A DNA stretch of 64,000 nucleotides, from NCBI GenBank assembly GCA_041662125.1, contig JBAZTA010000001.1:3118-67117 (forward strand), in the 5' to 3' direction. The notes under the pieces were generated by a model. It was not told where the DNA came from. It saw only the letters and a program-made list of their open reading frames with translations, and made no database searches. The stretch comes from Candidatus Omnitrophota bacterium. Lineage in GTDB: Bacteria; Omnitrophota; Gorgyraeia; Gygaellales; Profunditerraquicolaceae. The position numbers and the translations under genes are program-made. Below, piece after piece: positions 1 to 16,500 of this stretch (its first letter is position 1; every line of letters starts with the position of its first letter).

Positions 1-240
1 TATAAGTACTTGCTGTTCCCGTAGTATTATCATCTCCGGGAGAAGTCCAGCTTAAATTAATTTCTCCTCTATTTGTACCTGTGGAAGCAGCTAAATTACT
101 CACAGCCGCTGGAGCTGTGGTGTCGATTATTTCTGGAGTCTGAGTAATGTTTAAAACAGGTATTATTGAAAGATCAGAGCTATCGAGCGAAGTATTATGA
201 ACTTCAATAGCCAACAGATTATTGCCATCTTAAAAGATTT
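1..240 (-). pseudogene. Out-of-frame continuation of the 219..2795 ORF. The shifted frame reads [21 protein letters not shown]...APAAVSNLAASTGTNRGEINLSWTSPGDDNTTGTAST (FN3-like) and runs off the window start.
   Basis: Own translation of minus strand downstream of the TAA at 219-221; no stop in the shifted frame to position 1; domain continuity across the shift point. Confidence 0.45.
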
Positions 241-2795
241 AAATATGAACTTAAATCAAAATTTTCAGGAATTCCTGCTTCGTGATTAGACGTGCTCGCT
301 AAGGTATTATATGCAGGGATTCCTGAAATATATGACCGTATTACTTCGATTCCATTTATATATGCAACAAAACCATCATCGTAATCAATAGTTAAAACAA
401 GACCTGTTACTGTAGAAGCATTATTGAGATTAAATGTTTTTCTGGCATATACGCTCGCATAACTATTCTGCATATCTAAGAGTATTGTGACGTCATCACT
501 ATCACCATAGCCTATACCTGTAGCTCCCTCTAACCATAATGCATCATTAAAACTTACACCCGCCCAACTCGTACCTGGATTAGTGATACCTTTAAAATAC
601 TTCCAAGTATCTCCAACAGCAATTGCTGTATACGTACTAGGTGCTACGGTCGTAGTAAAAGTATAGTCACCAGAAACAGATTGATTAACGGCAGCATCTG
701 AGCTTAAGACACGATAATGATAAGTTGTACTCACATTGAGTCCTGTAATGTTCACAGAATGTGACGTATCCATATTTGAATCGAGCGTTGTCTGACTTCC
801 GTACGCTGCTGAGGTTCCGTATTCGACTTGAGAGCTGCTTGCTTCGTTTGTAGTCCAGGTCACGGTTGCGGCCGTGTTGGTAACACCGGATGAAGTTACA
901 CTTGAGATAACCGGGGCAGTAATATCAGGCGCGCTTATAGTAATACTTAAACTTTGAGTATCGATTGCAGTTGCAGAATCAGTAACTAAGACGCCAAAAC
1001 TAAACGCACCTTCAAGTGTCGGAGTCCCGGAAATAACGCCAGTAGAAGAATTCAAAGATAAACCAGTTGGTAAAGATCCTGACGCAATAGACCATATATA
1101 CGGTGCTGTTCCACCAGAAGCTGCCAAGGTCTGGGCATAAACAACATTACGTGTGCCATTGGCAATAGATGAAGTACTAATATTTAGCACTCCTCCAGCG
1201 TAAATTTCTGAAGGGATAGTATTACCTAAATATTCCCAGATATATTTTGTTAAAGTCTGCCCATCAGCGCAAAATCCACGGGTTACATTATTGGTTGTGG
1301 GAAGCGCCAACCCTGTTGGATTGTTTGTCGTTCTAAAGTCTGATCTAATATTATCTTCATATGGGTAAGGCCAAAGGTTATCTACAGTCAAAGTATTATA
1401 TCCGGTTTCTCCCCAAAGTGTTCCATCCAATCCATAGCGATATAGAATCGTAGCCCCTCTATTAGTTCCACCTTCACCTGTGCCATAACAAAAAGAATTC
1501 GTTTCTATCCTCGGTAAATAAAGCAGACCATTATCCGAAGTTATTGTGTGTGTTGACCCTGATGGCGTTGAAGTTATATTATACGAATTGTAATCCTGGA
1601 CATCTATCCCTCGGCTTCCTAAACCTGCAGTATCAATAATTGAGTTTTTTATTGTTGAAGTGATCCATCCACCTTCGTCTGTGGCTCTATCCCAAGCGAA
1701 ATAAGAACCTGAATCTAAATCTCCCAAAGTACAATGATTAGCTGTGGCTATAACTGCCCTTGTACCTGCATCACCGCCCTCATCCCAATAGATCCCCATC
1801 CCATCAACATCCCAAGCGATACAATCCGTTAGGGTATTTGGACCTACGTTCTGGCGATAATTATCAAGGGTATAGAACCCATTGCAACCACCAGCAGCAT
1901 TAAGATTAAGCGCAATACATCCCTGATATGCAACCGATTTTGTGAACTTAGGGGCATAAAAACCTCCATACACATCTGCCATTCCAGGACTCGCAGGATT
2001 CCAGTCAATCGCAATACAATTCTGAAAAAGGATATTGTTTACCGAACTATATTGAGAATCATCACCGCCATAAGCAGCAAAACACGCCTTAGGCTGACCA
2101 GTAGTTTTATAGTCCATCCTAACAACAACCCTGCGGATAATAATATTCGTAGTGTCAGCATAAAGATCGTTATTATCACCGATAACCAATACTCCATAAC
2201 GAATACATCCGCTTGTCCAGCTATCTTCTAGTAGAACATGATCACTCCCTCTTTGTATTACAAATGGTTCTCCATAACCGCTTGTATCTGAACCACTTCC
2301 GGCTGAAGAAATATGCGCTATTCTTTTTATCTTAATATACTGGCAATCAGACGTAGTTAAAGCACTAAAAGTATTAATGATTTTAATACCTTCTACCTGG
2401 ATATATCTTGCCGTCCCTCCTGCGCCCCATATAGCGATTGCCGCATCTCCTCCAGTAACATCCACTCCTTCCCCGTTAAAATCAATTATCGCTTTCCAAT
2501 CGTTTTCTGCCTTGACTATCGTATAATGATTTGCATCAGGACCTGATGGCGGCCTTATTTGATTACTCCAAGTCCTGGCTCCACCAGAAATGTAAGAGTA
2601 AGTTCCGTCCATCAATATCAAAGAATCGCCACCGACCATATGAGTACAACCATAATAAGGCGTTCTCCAGGGATTGACTCTTGTGCCATTACCAGTGGTA
2701 TCGCTGCCCGCCGGAGATACATAATAAGTAGCTGCAAAAGAAATCACCGGTGATAACAATAATAACATTATTATAATTAAAGTTTTTGTTTTCAT
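219..2795 (-). CDS. Secreted multidomain surface protein with signal peptide, right-handed beta-helix-like N-terminal region ([16 protein letters not shown]...), He_PIG-type putative Ig domain, FN3 domain and C-terminal ConA/LamG-like domain. Paralog A.
   Basis: 858-aa ORF; N-terminal hydrophobic signal; sequence motifs of PF05345-like and FN3 domains read from translation. Confidence 0.6.
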
Positions 2796-3030: not shown

Positions 3031-5214
3031 CTATGATGAGACGATTTTCTTAATAATAAGCACAGTTGGCTTAAGCGCAGCTCTGATCACTACCTCAATC
3101 CACATCTTATCCGTGATAACGCTCGCAACAGACGGACTCCATCTATAATACCAATTAACAAACTTTTTCCCCCATTCGTTTTTCAACAAATATGAATCCC
3201 TGAATTTCCTTAGAATTTTAACTTCAGAAGCATCATAAGAACCATATACAGCGGTCGCTATAAAACATCCGCCGCCGCCCCCTCCTCCTCCGCTGTCGGT
3301 TGAACCGGAAGAATTAGTCCCCGTGTTGGCAAATGCCTCATTGGAATACAGAGAATTTGAGCTACCGCTATACGCACGTACACGGTAATAATATGTAGTG
3401 CTGCTATTTAATCCCGTATCGCTGTATGAAGTCACGTTCTGACCGAGATCGGCTATTTGACTATAGATGCCTAACGACCCCTCTTTTCTTTCCAGTTTAA
3501 AACCCTCCTCAATACCGGAATTATCGGCCCAAGACAGATTAATTGCGCTTATTGATACTACGCTCGCAGTCAAAATAGATGGAGCAGCAATAACATATAT
3601 CTCTGCTGGGATGGTATTACCTAAATACTCCCAAATGTATTTTGTAAGTGTAGTCCCATTAACGCAAAAACCTCTGGTTGTATCATTAGTTTGCGGAAAA
3701 GTACCGGCTCCTTTAGGGGCATTCACTGTTCTAAAATCACTCCTAATCTGGTCTTCATACGGATAAGGCCACAGAGAAGTACCCGTAAGTGTAGCATAAT
3801 CAATTTCTCCCCAAAGCGTGCCATCTACACCATACTTGTAGAAAATGTTTGCTCCGATATCCTTACCTCCCTCACCTGTTCCCTTACAATTAGAACCTGT
3901 CTCAATCCTACAAAGATAAAGAAGCCCATTGTCTGTCGTGATAGAATTTGTCGCTCCTGCCGGCATTGCTACGATATTATAACAATTATATTTTTCTGTA
4001 TCTATATGCGTGTCATTTAAAGCTGAAGTATCTATAATGGAATTTAATAAAGTTGAATTTATCCAATCGCCATTCTGATAATCCCTGTCCCAGGCGTAAC
4101 GCTCACCCGCTGTAAGAGCGCCGATAGTACATTGGTCAGCGGTAGCGGTTACTGATCTTACTCCCGCCTCTCCTCCTCTATCCCAATAAATACCCATACC
4201 TTTGACATCCCAAGCTATACAATCGGCCATTGATGTGGGGCCTATATTTTGGCGATAATTATCAAGCACATAAAACCCATTACAAGTTCCATCTCCGGGT
4301 TTAAGGTTTAAAGCGATGCATCCCTGAAAAGTCACCTGCTTAGTGAATTTGGGGCAGTAATACCCACCATATATATCTGTCATCCCACTCCCCGGGTTCC
4401 AGTCTATAGCAATACAATTCTGAAAAACAATGTTATCAACACTCCCACAATCGGAATCATTGCCTCCATAAGCAGAAAAACATGCCTTTGGCTGACCGGG
4501 AAATTTATAGTCCATACGGATTACTACTCGCCTTACGATTACATGTGTTGTGTCAGAACCACCACTATTCCCATTATCTCCTATAACCAATACTCCATAA
4601 CGAATACAACCACTCGACCAGCTATCTTCCAGTAAAACATAATGGCTATTCCTTGCGATTATAAATGACTCTCCATACCCACTATCATCTGTTCCGCTCG
4701 CAGGAGAAGCTATAATTGCAAGCCTTTTTAGTTTTATGTGGTCACAATCACGCGTATAAACCGCAGTTGTTCCATTAATGACTTTTATACCTTCAACCTG
4801 GATATACTGCTTTGTCTGTCCTGATTCATAAATACGTATCGGCTCATCTCCATCGCTAATAGAACCGCAGCCAGACCAATCAATAATGGCTTGCCAATCA
4901 TTTTCAGCTTTGACAATTGTATAGTTACCTGCCGTGCCATTTGGCGGTCTGATTTGATTATCACAGCCAAGTTGAGTTGGAGTCGTATCAACATAAGTTC
5001 CATTTTTCAAGATTAACGTGTCACCTCCCGCCATTTGAGTACAGGCATAGCGAGGAGTTGCCCAAGGAGTAGGGTTTGAGCCGTTCCCAGTAGTATCACT
5101 GCCAGTAGGTGCAACATAATAAGTCGCTGCAAAGCTATTATGCGCAAAAAAGAAAATGAACAACAAGAAGAAAGTTAAATTAATAAGATTCTGAGCGTTA
5201 AACCTTTTAAACAT
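3031..5214 (-). CDS. Secreted beta-helix/FN3 surface protein, paralog B. It ends in a Gly8 run followed by CFIATAVYGS and an ~70-aa basic/aromatic tail.
   Basis: 727-aa ORF; N-terminal ~520 aa align with paralog A; FN3 segment (YYYRVRAYS); unusual C-terminal tail. Confidence 0.6.
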   Translation of the reverse strand: MFKRFNAQNLINLTFFLLFIFFFAHNSFAATYYVAPTGSDTTGNGSNPTPWATPRYACTQMAGGDTLILKNGTYVDTTPTQLGCDNQIRPPNGTAGNYTIVKAENDWQAIIDWSGCGSISDGDEPIRIYESGQTKQYIQVEGIKVINGTTAVYTRDCDHIKLKRLAIIASPASGTDDSGYGESFIIARNSHYVLLEDSWSSGCIRYGVLVIGDNGNSGGSDTTHVIVRRVVIRMDYKFPGQPKACFSAYGGNDSDCGSVDNIVFQNCIAIDWNPGSGMTDIYGGYYCPKFTKQVTFQGCIALNLKPGDGTCNGFYVLDNYRQNIGPTSMADCIAWDVKGMGIYWDRGGEAGVRSVTATADQCTIGALTAGERYAWDRDYQNGDWINSTLLNSIIDTSALNDTHIDTEKYNCYNIVAMPAGATNSITTDNGLLYLCRIETGSNCKGTGEGGKDIGANIFYKYGVDGTLWGEIDYATLTGTSLWPYPYEDQIRSDFRTVNAPKGAGTFPQTNDTTRGFCVNGTTLTKYIWEYLGNTIPAEIYVIAAPSILTASVVSISAINLSWADNSGIEEGFKLERKEGSLGIYSQIADLGQNVTSYSDTGLNSSTTYYYRVRAYSGSSNSLYSNEAFANTGTNSSGSTDSGGGGGGGGCFIATAVYGSYDASEVKILRKFRDSYLLKNEWGKKFVNWYYRWSPSVASVITDKMWIEVVIRAALKPTVLIIKKIVSS

Positions 5215-12311: not shown

Positions 12312-13511
12312 TTAAATATTCGGCAAAAAATTCCAGAAAATGTTCTGCGAATATAAAAGGCAGCATTTTTTGCACGAATCGAACAAGCCTTTTTGTTTGA
12401 GTCTCTTCCTAAAATTAACTGCTTTATCGGAATTAATGATCTCATTAATACTGTTCTGCCTCAAATTACCCATAGCAACTGACAAAGAACAGGGATAAAC
12501 ATTACCATAAGGATCTATCCGACAAGAGTACCATGGGGAAAAGCATTTCTTTACGATACTGTAATCAGGAACGTTAAAAAACTTTTTTCTAGTCTTTCTT
12601 CCCACTATCGACATCTCTACAGACTGGTTAAGCTGCTTGGAACGCAAAAGAACAGTTTCAATCTCCTTTTCAAGCATATCTGTATCGATCTTGCCAATCT
12701 CATCTGACATAATAAAACTTTCCTGCTTTATGAAATTGCCCTGAAGCTCTTTTTTGGTATTATCCGCATTTTCCTCGTTAGAAAATATTATCGGGTCTAT
12801 TGTAAGCGGCAACCCCTTTTCTTTAGCGATTCCTACCAATTCAACCAGATGCTCCTGGTTCAACCTTGACACTGTACAAAGAAAATTTAGATTAGGACAA
12901 TTCCTTCCCTGACTGATCTTCTCCCGGCTAATCCAATCCACAGCATTCATGATATTATCGTATATCCTGGCTTTTCTGATAAATTCATGCACTTCTTTAG
13001 GCCCATCTAGAGAGATCGTGATATTATCCACTCCTATCTCTACGACTTTTCTGGCAATTTCCTGAGTTATTAAACCTGCATTAGAAGTATAAGAAACCTT
13101 GAAACCAGACTTTATAGCCAAATCCGTAATCTCCAGGATATCCTTTCTCAAAAAAACCTCGCCTCCGGAGAAATTTATGTATTCCGTACCGAGTTTTTTC
13201 AAGTCTTCAAAAAGCTTTCTGAACTCGCTAACAGCAAGCTCCTTACCATTCTTCATAGACTCCAGCAGACCTTTACCACCGTCAGTATGTATCCCGTAAA
13301 GAGGGCACATCTGACATCTGCAATTGCATAAGAATGTAACTTCTATACAGATCTCTTTAAGGGAACGGATTTTTCCCATGCCAAATAAATAATCAGGATA
13401 ATATGACCTAATCGCCTTACTTAGACCCCGGAGGTTCTTTAGAAAAACCGGAGATATAATTTCCTTCAAAAAAGCCCTCATCCTTATGTTCATGATACAT
13501 TTTCCTTTCAT
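12312..13511 (-). CDS. Radical SAM enzyme with C-terminal SPASM-like Cys cluster
   Basis: CNCRCQMC matches CxxxCxxC; C-terminal CFSPWYSC...PCSLS...CKKCC auxiliary cluster; embedded among glycosyltransferases. Confidence 0.7.
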   Translation of the reverse strand: MKGKCIMNIRMRAFLKEIISPVFLKNLRGLSKAIRSYYPDYLFGMGKIRSLKEICIEVTFLCNCRCQMCPLYGIHTDGGKGLLESMKNGKELAVSEFRKLFEDLKKLGTEYINFSGGEVFLRKDILEITDLAIKSGFKVSYTSNAGLITQEIARKVVEIGVDNITISLDGPKEVHEFIRKARIYDNIMNAVDWISREKISQGRNCPNLNFLCTVSRLNQEHLVELVGIAKEKGLPLTIDPIIFSNEENADNTKKELQGNFIKQESFIMSDEIGKIDTDMLEKEIETVLLRSKQLNQSVEMSIVGRKTRKKFFNVPDYSIVKKCFSPWYSCRIDPYGNVYPCSLSVAMGNLRQNSINEIINSDKAVNFRKRLKQKGLFDSCKKCCLLYSQNIFWNFLPNI

Positions 13512-13518
13512 CTAGCCG

Positions 13519-16500
13519 TTACGCAGCGATCTGGCAATATAACTTTTCATATTCGCTGGTCATTTTTTCAATCGAAAATTGTTCTATAACTACTTGAAGC
13601 GCCCTTCTTCCCATAGTTATCGACTCTTGATGGTTCTGCAACATCCAGATAATAGCCTGCGCCAATTTGTCCGGAGATCTGGAAGGAATTAATAAACCTG
13701 TTTTACTATTAGCGATTACTTCCGGATTTCCTCCGACTTCAGTAGCGATTATCGGCAAAGCCGCTGACATCGCCTCTAAAAGGGTTATTGATAATCCCTC
13801 GCTTAAACTCGATAAGATGAATATATCTAATATTCTTAGAAGTTCTGGGATATCTCTTCTATCCCCAAGGAATATCACTTCTTTTTCTATATTCAATTGC
13901 CTGGCATACTGTTTAAGCTCTTCCATCATCGGACCGTTACCGATAAGCAGCAGTCTAATATCTGGCAGCTGCGAAAAAGCTATTTTGAATCCATCCATTA
14001 ACGTCTTGTGATCCTTGACCGGTGCTAACCTAGCGATATTTCCTATCACCCGGCAAACACTCGGTATACCAAAAACTGTCTTATCCGGTTTTAACGCGGC
14101 TTCATTACTGTATTTCTTAGTGTCTATGCCATTGTAGACGACCTTTATTTTCTTGGCATTTACTTTTGCTTTTACCAATAAATACTCCGCGACATTTTTG
14201 ACCACGCAAACTACCGCAGTGGTCCTGATAGCCAGGTAACGCAGGAAATATATAAGTTTAAACTCTTCAGGCCTTAAAGTTGAATGCTGGGTATGGATAA
14301 TCTTCGTTTTTTTAAGCCCGATACATGCCAATACCGCATAAAACCACTGGGCGGCATTATGAGAATGCACAATATCAATATTCTGATCTTTAAAAAGCTT
14401 ACTTAGTTTAATAATAAGCTTTAAATCTATGCCTTCTTGCTTTTTTTCTTGATAAAATGCAATACCCAACTGCTCAAACTCATTCTTCAGGAAATTCTTT
14501 TCTTTAAACGAACAAACACTGATGTTAAACCGGCTTTTATCTAAAGATCTGCACATTGCCAAGATCAAAGTTTCGATACCGCCAATATCGAAAGAATAAT
14601 TCAAGAATAACAAATTAATCTTTCTATCAATAAGTTTATTTCCTTTTTCCAAGGACAATGGAAAATTAATATTTAAGACTAGGCTTTTTAAGAATAAAAC
14701 TATCGCCTGGATAGTGAAATGGCATCGCATACTCTCAAGGATAAGATACTGTGATTCTTTAATATGTCTGTACCATAACAGGTCCTGGGCGTAATCAATG
14801 TTAATCCGTGCCGTGATTTTCGAGATAAACTTTTTATTGCGTGCAACGAATTCAGGATTATCTCGGGAAAAATTATCAATCACTTTTAGTCGGTTTTTGG
14901 TAACCAACTGATTACTTAAGGAATTAGCGCTTTTCTTGTACTTCACTAGAGGTTGAACAATCAAACCAATCTTATAATTCATACTTACCTTAAGCATAAT
15001 ATCTACATCTTCAGCAGTAGTTAAGCTCTCGCTAAATAAACCCACATCTTCAAGAATTTTCTTTTTAGTTAACATGTAAGAACAAGTTGTAGACTTCTTC
15101 TCAAGGAGCATTTTTAACACTTCTTTAACCCCTAATTCTTCCTTTTTAACAGTCTTTTTAATGTCCGAAAAAGATATTTTCTTATTATTTGCATTTAATA
15201 TCTCAACTTCCGAAATCACCATACCTAATTCTGGATTTGAACTTAACAAATCTATCTGCTTTTTAAGCTTCTCAGGATACCAACGGTCATCTGAATCTAA
15301 AAAAGCCACGTATTCTCCTTTACTTTCCTTAATAGCCTTGTTACGCGCATTAGAACAGCCAACATGTTCATAATACAAATATCTTATTTTATTTTTATAA
15401 CCATTTAATATTTCTTGAGTATTATCAGTAGAGCCGTCATCAGAAACAATGATTTCTACGTTTTTGTATGACTGATTGATAACACTATCGATCGCTTGAC
15501 AGATTAAATCAGCCCTATTATAGGTAGGTATAATAACGCTTATTAGCGGTTCGCCTGGTTTAATAGATATTTCAACCTTTCCTCTATCTTTATAACTCTT
15601 ATCCACATAAGAAATGACTTCTATAAGAAAACTTTTTAGATACAAAAATGTTGCTTTAAGAGAAAAATTATTAAATAGGCTTTTTCTTGCCTGATTGCGG
15701 CTATCATTGATATACCTGTATAACAACAAGTCTTCGGCATATCTTAAATGCACTACAGATATCGTTTTTTTTAGGATATCATTGTTTTCTTTTGCCAAAA
15801 CAGGATAGATTTTTTTAAACTTCGCAATGACCCGTAGCCGGTTCTGAGTAAATAAACTATGACTAAGCGAATTGGCGACTTTACGGTATTTTAAAAGCGA
15901 CTCCGGAAAAAGGGCAATCTTATACTCGGCTGCAATTCTTAGAAAATAATCGATATCTGCGGCTGTCTTTAAATTTTCATCAAACTCTCCAATATAAGCG
16001 ACAACATCCTTCCTAACGATCATATTAGAAAACATCCCCACGAGATTTTTAAGCATATAAGAAAGAACGTGTCCATCGCGAGGAAAATCATTCTTAAAGC
16101 TGCTGCAAAACAGTTTCTTGCCGTTTATATCGATAAACTCTATTTCGCTGATAATAGCTCCGAAACTATCGTTTTTTTCCATAAAGCCTATCAACTTTTG
16201 CAGTCTTTCCAAACACCAGATATCATCTGAATCCAAGAAAGCTATATATTTGCCTCTGGCTTTTTTAACCCCGAAATTCCTGGCGCTTGATTCTCCGCCG
16301 TTATCCTTATAATAATAATCTATTTTGTTCTCATAGGCTTCCAATACTTCCCGGGTATTATCTATTGAACCGTCATCTATAATAATGATCTCGAAATCTT
16401 TGGAAGTCTGCGCCAAAACGCTATCAATAGACTCCGATATGGTATCAGCCCTATTGTATGTCGGAATAAGTACGCTTACCAAAGGAACCTTATTTTCCAT
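13519..16500 (-). CDS. Three-domain glycosyltransferase (GT2-GT2-GT4 fusion)
   Basis: 993 aa; two VLIPTYNRAD/VIIPTYNRAD GT2 N-terminal signatures plus C-terminal GT4 motif LLEAMSAALPIIATEVGGNPE. Confidence 0.65.
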   Translation of the reverse strand: MENKVPLVSVLIPTYNRADTISESIDSVLAQTSKDFEIIIIDDGSIDNTREVLEAYENKIDYYYKDNGGESSARNFGVKKARGKYIAFLDSDDIWCLERLQKLIGFMEKNDSFGAIISEIEFIDINGKKLFCSSFKNDFPRDGHVLSYMLKNLVGMFSNMIVRKDVVAYIGEFDENLKTAADIDYFLRIAAEYKIALFPESLLKYRKVANSLSHSLFTQNRLRVIAKFKKIYPVLAKENNDILKKTISVVHLRYAEDLLLYRYINDSRNQARKSLFNNFSLKATFLYLKSFLIEVISYVDKSYKDRGKVEISIKPGEPLISVIIPTYNRADLICQAIDSVINQSYKNVEIIVSDDGSTDNTQEILNGYKNKIRYLYYEHVGCSNARNKAIKESKGEYVAFLDSDDRWYPEKLKKQIDLLSSNPELGMVISEVEILNANNKKISFSDIKKTVKKEELGVKEVLKMLLEKKSTTCSYMLTKKKILEDVGLFSESLTTAEDVDIMLKVSMNYKIGLIVQPLVKYKKSANSLSNQLVTKNRLKVIDNFSRDNPEFVARNKKFISKITARINIDYAQDLLWYRHIKESQYLILESMRCHFTIQAIVLFLKSLVLNINFPLSLEKGNKLIDRKINLLFLNYSFDIGGIETLILAMCRSLDKSRFNISVCSFKEKNFLKNEFEQLGIAFYQEKKQEGIDLKLIIKLSKLFKDQNIDIVHSHNAAQWFYAVLACIGLKKTKIIHTQHSTLRPEEFKLIYFLRYLAIRTTAVVCVVKNVAEYLLVKAKVNAKKIKVVYNGIDTKKYSNEAALKPDKTVFGIPSVCRVIGNIARLAPVKDHKTLMDGFKIAFSQLPDIRLLLIGNGPMMEELKQYARQLNIEKEVIFLGDRRDIPELLRILDIFILSSLSEGLSITLLEAMSAALPIIATEVGGNPEVIANSKTGLLIPSRSPDKLAQAIIWMLQNHQESITMGRRALQVVIEQFSIEKMTSEYEKLYCQIAA

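Follow-up and report, generated by a model that had tools for sequence, protein, structure and literature searches.

The question raised by this locus is what the C-terminal tail of a secreted protein is and what it does. The protein, termed paralog B, is encoded in a stretch of 64,000 nucleotides from Candidatus Omnitrophota bacterium (contig JBAZTA010000001.1, positions 3,118 to 67,117 of the forward strand; here called the window). Its gene lies at 3031..5214 on the reverse strand and is read as an uninterrupted translation of 727 residues, the end of which is ...SGSTDSGGGGGGGG-CFIATAVYGS...KPTVLIIKKIVSS followed by the stop codon. When the protein was searched against NCBIfam, the curated model NF041770 (CFI_box_CTERM) was matched with 93.6 bits (E = 4.7e-27; curated cutoff 40 bits), and the tail by itself scored 98.4 bits. 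The alignment runs from end to end, with model positions 1-69 of 69 falling on residues 650-718 of 727, and the signature of the family (G-C-F-I-A-T-A-x-Y-G, L-R-x-F-R-D, G, Y-Y and S-P) is complete in the window tail. No match to the tail besides NF041770 was found in NCBIfam at E ≤ 1, and no model in Pfam matches it. That the tail is a genuine CFI-box-CTERM domain is near certain. It is also already catalogued, being covered by a curated family and carried by a protein that bears the family name in GenBank: P0239, an exact match to paralog B, is named by NCBI 'CFI-box-CTERM domain-containing protein [Candidatus Omnitrophota bacterium]'. Full-length match, C-terminal placement, Gly-rich linker and signature residues are all as in the rest of the family, from which the window copy shows no sequence-level difference; its subclass is the one in which a signal peptide is combined with a short tail lacking a transmembrane helix. 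An initial annotation, made from the sequence alone, had described a Gly8-CFIATAVYGS tail on a secreted beta-helix and fibronectin type III (fn3) protein, had suggested a 'CFI-box' type of domain and had set the tail apart from PEP-CTERM, LPXTG and Por-type signals, and each of these points is borne out by the uninterrupted open reading frame (ORF) and by NF041770 as the sole NCBIfam match.

All parts of paralog B are encoded on the reverse strand. A Sec signal peptide is predicted by sequence reading for residues 1-29 (5128..5214), with cleavage after SFA, and a helix spans residues 7-25 in the structural model; the N-terminus, MFKRFNAQNLINLTFFLLFIFFFAHNSFA followed by ATYYV, is Sec-signal-peptide-like, and ATYYV, the predicted mature start, is conserved among homologs, whose alignment begins there. 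The mature protein would open with a right-handed beta-helix passenger similar to polysaccharide lyase family 9 (PL9), assigned by AlphaFold2 modelling and Foldseek to residues ~30-545 (3580..5127), followed by an fn3 domain at residues 544-627 (3334..3585; Pfam PF00041, E = 2.2e-7, 31.4 bits versus a cutoff of 25). A low-complexity linker of Ser, Thr, Asn and Gly, read from the sequence at 3268..3333, closes with eight Gly residues (3268-3291), and directly after it comes Cys650 (3265-3267), the first residue of the CFI-box-CTERM domain (residues 650-718, 3061..3267; NF041770 match and AlphaFold2 model). The tail downstream of Gly8 amounts to 78 residues, CFIATAVYGSYDASEVKILRKFRDSYLLKNEWGKKFVNWYYRWSPSVASVITDKMWIEVVIRAALKPTVLIIKKIVSS, with a net charge of +7. 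Its final nine residues, the basic end of helix 4 with KKIVSS, lie together with the stop codon at 3031..3060 and contain no transmembrane segment. The maximum of the 19-residue Kyte-Doolittle mean over the tail is 1.41, which is not that of a membrane span, and the end of the protein, ...LIIKKIVSS, is amphipathic; what the initial annotation had taken for a terminal hydrophobic stretch is the end of an amphipathic helix.

An origin of the tail by frameshift or read-through was considered and is ruled out, because the ortholog in a sister Omnitrophota metagenome-assembled genome (MAG; contigs L002/L082) shows the same order of fn3, Gly7 and CFI box. The locus in this genome is syntenic, with genes for a GT4 glycosyltransferase, an epimerase, a UDP-GlcNAc 2-epimerase, a 658-residue protein and a 3261-residue protein. 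Paralog B has its positional ortholog in the 658-residue protein (L082:4462-6438), which closes, behind its fn3 domain, with Gly7-CFIATAVYGSYDASEVKVLRLFRD... The 3261-residue protein (L082:6914-16699) is collinear with the neighbouring window gene, paralog A (52% identity over 1500 residues), and terminates in Gly13-CFIATAAYGSYDAVDVKVLRSFRD..., with a CFIATAAYGS box. The tail is thus present on both paralogs in the sister genome, and the length of the Gly run differs between orthologs (7, 8 and 13).

These orthologs bear on the statement of the initial annotation that paralog A lacks the tail, which proved to be the product of a frameshift combined with the window edge. Paralog A occupies 1..2795 on the reverse strand and runs past the start of the window, the annotated ORF being 219..2795, and its beta-helix is 64% identical to that of paralog B. 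Logan contig L001 carries the same genes and otherwise matches; compared with it, the window has a 2-bp deletion (CA) at ~230/231 that changes CTTTTACAAGATGG to CTTTTAAGATGG. The deletion cuts window paralog A to 858 residues, the true frame runs on to window position 1, and in L001 paralog A has at least 1481 residues. An assembly error, a strain variant and a real pseudogene are all possible as the source of the deletion, and exact-product look-ups of the 858-residue and 849-residue forms gave no match. Judged by orthology, a CFI box most likely closes paralog A of the window genome as well. Relatedness between the paralogs is a mosaic: the beta-helices of A and B are 64-69% identical within each genome, and the positional B orthologs are 46% identical overall, with fn3 and linker at ~92% and tails at 55-60%. 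Such a pattern suggests that the tandem paralogs have undergone gene conversion or have exchanged domains.

To place the tail in its family, a profile was built from the window tail and its ten first matches. Searches with this profile returned 31,588 clusters (50% identity) at E ≤ 1e-3, 23,410 of them at E ≤ 1e-10, and an exact-pattern scan of GTDB genomes gave 248 loci, which span the Omnitrophota, Desulfobacterota, Planctomycetota, Nitrospirota, Chloroflexota, Campylobacterota, Firmicutes, Bacteroidota, the candidate phyla radiation (CPR) and several archaeal lineages. Invariant or nearly invariant in three alignments (A1, A2 and A3), which are made up of best-scoring matches and so are tilted to the consensus, are the Cys, Ala-Thr, a Tyr, Leu-Arg-x-Phe-Arg-Asp, a Gly, Tyr-Tyr and Ser-Pro. 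Gly stands before the Cys in 270 of 319 domains (85%), and Phe or Tyr stands after it. The same 319 domains have a mean net charge of +6.2, with 96% of them positive, and an aromatic content of 14%.

The box is C-terminal in essentially every member. In the few proteins in which it appears to be internal, a transmembrane helix, a basic cluster and a new signal peptide come next, suggesting that two coding units share a reading frame. Examples are L043:3-3632, L065:3832-6474 and P0122-P0125, in which the frame runs on from the CFI box, transmembrane helix and basic cluster into a signal peptide or lipobox and a second protein. In L043 and L065 this second protein is outer-membrane-barrel-like with an aromatic last residue. 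Such fusions may occur naturally as two proteins in one or may reflect lost stop codons. Members fall into three classes. The first, to which the window protein belongs, combines a signal peptide with a short tail, the second has a signal peptide and a long tail, and the third has a short tail and neither signal peptide nor transmembrane segment. The long-tail class accounts for 33 of 83 genome matches, 25 of the 33 having signal-peptide-like N-termini, and in its tails helix 4 is followed by [K/R/Q][Y/H]P, a transmembrane helix and RRKK. Of the 100 top-scoring representatives, 93 lack both signal peptide and transmembrane segment, a figure drawn from lists skewed to the profile's own subfamily and not a share of the whole family. 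The N-terminal partners in the class without signal peptide are mostly binding repeats and zinc ribbons, with BspA-type leucine-rich repeats (LRR_5) in 12 cases and Sel1 repeats in 6; TPR, ankyrin, HEAT, cold-shock, WYL, HNH, NERD and DuOB domains were also seen.

An AlphaFold2 model of the tail, computed from an alignment of 121 sequences, contains four helices (pLDDT 81, pTM 0.65), predicted at FIATAVY, EVKILRKFRDSYLL, GKKFVNWYYRWSPSVASVITDK and WIEVVIRAALKPTVLII... In all three tail classes helices 2-4 show a periodic alternation of hydrophobic and polar residues, the pattern expected of a folded amphipathic bundle rather than of a membrane span. With near certainty the CFI box can be described as a module in its own right, ~70 residues long and strongly cationic, with four predicted helices and a flexible Gly-rich linker in front of it. 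Searches for remote relatives gave little: Foldseek with the tail model against the PDB and the family profile against PDB sequences each returned zero matches. The best structural match in BFVD was a phage protein annotated with an intramolecular chaperone auto-processing domain, which was not significant (E = 0.22, TMq 0.61), and no Pfam match to the Peptidase_S74 chaperone domain was found for the tail or for the 121 members. The type IX secretion system (Por) C-terminal domain is a beta-sandwich of ~80 residues, whereas the tail is predicted to be all-helical, and no NCBIfam or Pfam match to that domain was obtained. In a Pfam search of the 121 members of A2 at E ≤ 5, the only recurrent match was a weak one to DUF4760 in 8 (best E = 0.011), which may be remote similarity or noise. 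Among viruses the box was found in 2 of 50,697 phage records by tblastn and at 3 IMG/VR loci, and the PHROGs collection gave a marginal partial match to the tail (phrog_5604, E = 0.0055) and none to the CFI region of four other members. The idea of the CFI box as a phage module was rejected on account of its scarcity in phage and IMG/VR records and of PHROGs and BFVD matches that are marginal and non-significant, respectively.

The reading that we tentatively favour, with somewhat less than even confidence, is that the CFI box is a non-covalent module for retention or assembly at an anionic envelope surface beside the membrane. Some relatives carry a transmembrane helix and a basic cluster directly after the domain, which places the domain at the membrane surface, and many other relatives look cytoplasmic, so that the domain must be able to work on either side of the membrane. 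The module would probably act uncleaved and need no dedicated partner enzyme, serving as a foot that keeps its passenger at the anionic, membrane-adjacent surface, with the transmembrane helix reinforcing retention in some lineages. For paralog B this surface would be that of the cytoplasmic membrane, on its periplasmic side, or of the acidic polymer under export, and an enzyme that trims or modifies the polymer would thereby be kept beside the export machinery. Surface binding, the absence of cleavage and a benefit to exopolysaccharide processing are what we infer. Uncleaved cationic amphipathic C-termini are used as anchors elsewhere, on the periplasmic face of the membrane by PBP5 and PBP6 of Escherichia coli and on the cytoplasmic face by MinD and FtsA. 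The likeness lies in a possible mode of action and not in family, since these anchors are single helices of 10-20 residues with loose sequence, whereas the CFI box is predicted to comprise four helices and has invariant Cys, Thr, Arg, Asp and Tyr residues.

Several points weigh against this reading. The long-tail class has the domain in addition to a transmembrane helix, where a mere anchor would be redundant. The invariant Cys, Thr, Arg, Asp and Tyr pair resemble an active or ligand site more than a generic amphipathic anchor, and the charge of +6 per domain counts against assembly by simple self-association. The skew of the representative lists toward one subfamily limits what the signal-peptide figure can say in favour of this reading, and a full-text literature search returned no relevant paper on CFI-box-CTERM, its motif variants or NF041770. 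The strictly conserved Gly-Cys with which the domain opens hints at a further, chemical function that retention does not explain, for instance metal binding, a thiol link or acylation. In a bolder form of this argument the box is a universal, chemically active module of bacteria and archaea, in which Gly-Cys, with the Thr, Arg, Asp and Tyr, forms a thioester or takes up a lipid or metal and so attaches passengers from either side of the membrane without a sorting enzyme. This is improbable; if true, it would mean a new enzyme-independent chemistry of protein anchoring in tens of thousands of protein families.

Whether the domain has a partner gene was examined in the neighbourhoods of 80 CFI loci from GTDB genomes (1.06 Mb, 1147 ORFs), clustered all against all. 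No conserved partner was found across these loci, the sole recurrent family other than CFI proteins being generic sigma-54 response regulators, at 11 loci. The initial annotation had pointed to co-occurrence with radical SAM/SPASM enzymes and to such a gene in the same locus. That gene (12312-13511, reverse strand) belongs to the same co-directional locus as the CFI gene, at a distance of six genes, and is flanked by a GT2-GT2-GT4 fusion gene and two GT4 genes, and its best NCBIfam scores of 83-84 bits are under every family cutoff (170-650); it may modify a sugar rather than a peptide. No homolog of it was found by phmmer in the 80 loci, and a three-sequence radical SAM profile together with a CxxxCxxC scan gave background or lineage-specific matches alone. 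The CxxxCxxC motif occurs in 10 of the 1147 ORFs, and the only such ORFs adjacent to CFI genes are AmmeMemoRadiSam-like and belong to four related loci of the Planctomycetota (L012, L027, L040 and L046). In these, tandem long-tail CFI proteins of ~1000 residues stand near an opposite-strand radical SAM gene with the motif CNLSCQFCQNW, at 10-80 bp in three loci and ~3 kb in L040, which looks like lineage-specific synteny. In gut Firmicutes (L142-L147), two short CFI proteins with a Cys-rich N-terminal domain (P0020 and P0019) have a radical SAM/SPASM gene of RiPP-maturase-like type two genes downstream, followed by an ORF of 37-43 residues, in small islands beside an Xre-type regulator; related loci (L148-L150; P0029 and P0034) contain the regulator and an uncharacterised gene of ~146 residues and no radical SAM gene. 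A family-wide radical SAM partnership is not supported, and the Firmicutes loci are a possible exception to the otherwise negative partner analysis.

The suggestion that the Cys of the tail is a substrate of a radical SAM/SPASM maturase, thioether-cross-linked by the enzyme encoded 9 kb upstream, drew on the position of that gene in the same co-directional locus, and the maturase-like genes near P0019 and P0020 could be taken the same way. The window enzyme, however, scores below all family cutoffs, sits among glycosyltransferases six genes away and has no homolog in the 80 loci, where ORFs with the radical SAM motif number only 10 of 1147; the loci of P0029 and P0034 do without such a gene, and in the Firmicutes islands the ORF of 37-43 residues beside the maturase is the likelier substrate. 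The idea is largely refuted for the family, and among the explanations weighed here it is the one to which we give almost no credence. A true sorting or processing signal, in keeping with the 'CTERM' of the family name and with the resemblance noted in the initial annotation, would imply an undiscovered dedicated enzyme that cuts near the Gly-Cys bond or the junction between [Y/H]P and the transmembrane helix and links the passenger covalently to lipid or envelope, for example via the Cys. The CFI box shares with the PEP-CTERM/exosortase, LPXTG/sortase, MYXO-CTERM and PGF-CTERM/archaeosortase systems its position as a C-terminal module behind a low-complexity linker on secreted surface proteins. 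Its Gly-Cys is invariant, the long-tail relatives end in motif, transmembrane helix and basic residues much as PEP-CTERM, LPXTG and MYXO-CTERM proteins do, and P0285, a homolog of the passenger, has a MYXO-CTERM-like tail (Gly-rich, GC, transmembrane helix, RRRR) at the same position. In the known tripartite signals, GlyGly-CTERM among them, a motif of 3-6 residues stands directly before a transmembrane helix, and a basic cluster closes the protein, whereas the conserved part of the CFI box is a folded helical domain of 70 residues. The window tail has neither a transmembrane segment nor such a basic terminal cluster, and where a transmembrane helix does exist the conserved box lies ~65 residues upstream of it. 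Some tripartite signals are preceded by pre-signal domains, such as the PGF-pre-PGF domain. Signal peptides are missing from most of the top-scoring representatives (the 93 of 100 given above), the family occurs in diderm, monoderm, CPR and archaeal lineages without a known common sorting enzyme, and neither a conserved partner at the 80 loci nor a sortase or exosortase family among the scanned window ORFs was found. Taken together, the lack of a transmembrane segment in the window tail, the many members without signal peptide, the differing envelopes and the absent partner gene argue against a cleaved sorting signal as well as against a radical SAM substrate, and the description as a sorting tag is doubtful enough for us to call it unlikely.

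Two further explanations need no partner enzyme. In one of them the four-helix tail is an oligomerisation or folding-helper module that multimerises, adds avidity and aids assembly of the beta-helix, like a foldon or an intramolecular chaperone. Such a function is compatible with any compartment and any N-terminal partner, most partners being repeats or modules for binding; tight packing of helices is favoured by the invariant small residues (A-T-A..G), and long-tail proteins that have the domain besides a transmembrane helix are accounted for. The best BFVD match, to the phage protein with the intramolecular chaperone annotation (E = 0.22, TMq 0.61), also points this way, but it is not significant, matches in the PDB number zero, neither Peptidase_S74 nor any other Pfam domain is matched, and the domain is scarce in viruses. 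The strong positive charge disfavours self-association, and most passenger homologs fold without a tail. We hold this explanation, too, to be unlikely. In the other, the domain processes itself, Cys650 attacking the Gly649-Cys650 bond in an N-to-S acyl shift that frees or transfers the passenger. Hedgehog proteins and inteins cleave at sites of the Gly-Cys-Phe type, and the window protein has a Cys at +1 in the same setting (Gly649-Cys650-Phe651); throughout the family the invariant Cys opens the domain with Gly before it (85%) and Phe or Tyr after it, and the invariant Thr, Arg, Asp and Tyr could assist the chemistry. The Hint fold of these proteins has ~130-150 residues with intein blocks, whereas the predicted fold here is four helices in ~70 residues and not the Hint beta-fold, and no Pfam Hint or intein match was obtained, which leaves self-processing very improbable. 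Of all these explanations, non-covalent retention or assembly at an anionic surface is the most economical and the one that we continue to favour.

What such a module would retain in the Omnitrophota is suggested by the passenger of paralog B. The AlphaFold2 model of the passenger is a right-handed beta-helix with pLDDT mostly >90. In Foldseek searches the top matches were the PL9 rhamnogalacturonan lyase 5OLR (E = 6e-10) and Pel9A (1RU4), with E-values for PL9 folds from 6e-10 to 8e-8 at an identity of 15-16%; PL6 alginate and chondroitin lyases and the AlgE4 epimerase ranked next. A sequence search of the passenger against the PDB gave zero matches, and a precomputed match to PF22842 is on record. 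The resemblance to lyases and epimerases of uronate polymers is in keeping with a polymer of uronic acids as the substrate, and an activity as lyase, epimerase or hydrolase is possible on the basis of the model. The right-handed beta-helix is what the passenger has in common with the PL9 lyases (Pel9A 1RU4 and 5OLR), and in the window it is encoded in a uronic-acid exopolysaccharide locus. Most homologs of the passenger have no tail at all. A few others carry, at the position of the tail, a type IX secretion-like domain (P0240), the MYXO-CTERM-like tail of P0285, a transmembrane helix (P0298) or dockerin-like modules (P0243, P0286, P0303 and P0312), and one has a CFI box (P0274). This variety of anchoring modules at a single position suggests that the position is used for localisation.

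The surrounding genes, from ~42.9 kb of the window down to its start, form a single co-directional Wzx/Wzy-type exopolysaccharide locus of ~43 kb on the reverse strand. It encodes Wza, Wzz/GNVR, ATPases, sugar-nucleotide enzymes that include two UDP-sugar 6-dehydrogenases, amidotransferases, an acyl-CoA ligase, a flippase, Wzy, many glycosyltransferases, a deacetylase and a 2-epimerase, with paralogs B and A last, and it makes uronic-acid sugars. The GT2-GT2-GT4 fusion gene beside the radical SAM gene is an ORF of 993 residues with two GT2 domains and one GT4 domain (13519-16500, reverse strand). An amidotransferase of the asparagine-synthase type and the acyl-CoA ligase recall accessory families of exosortase-A/PEP-CTERM systems, with scores below the respective cutoffs (475 versus 817 and 404 versus 592 bits). 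Neither an exosortase nor a sortase was found among the ~42 window ORFs scanned with Pfam or NCBIfam, and none recurs near the 80 CFI loci.

The significance of these results rests in the family as an uncharacterised module and not in the window copy, which is ordinary. The CFI-box family is a large known unknown, spread over most phyla of prokaryotes, with neither a Pfam model nor a solved structure. The role of the invariant Cys and the placement of the passenger, once shown, would annotate very many proteins together. For the Omnitrophota, the function of the CFI box would tell how enzymes that process exopolysaccharide stay at the envelope.

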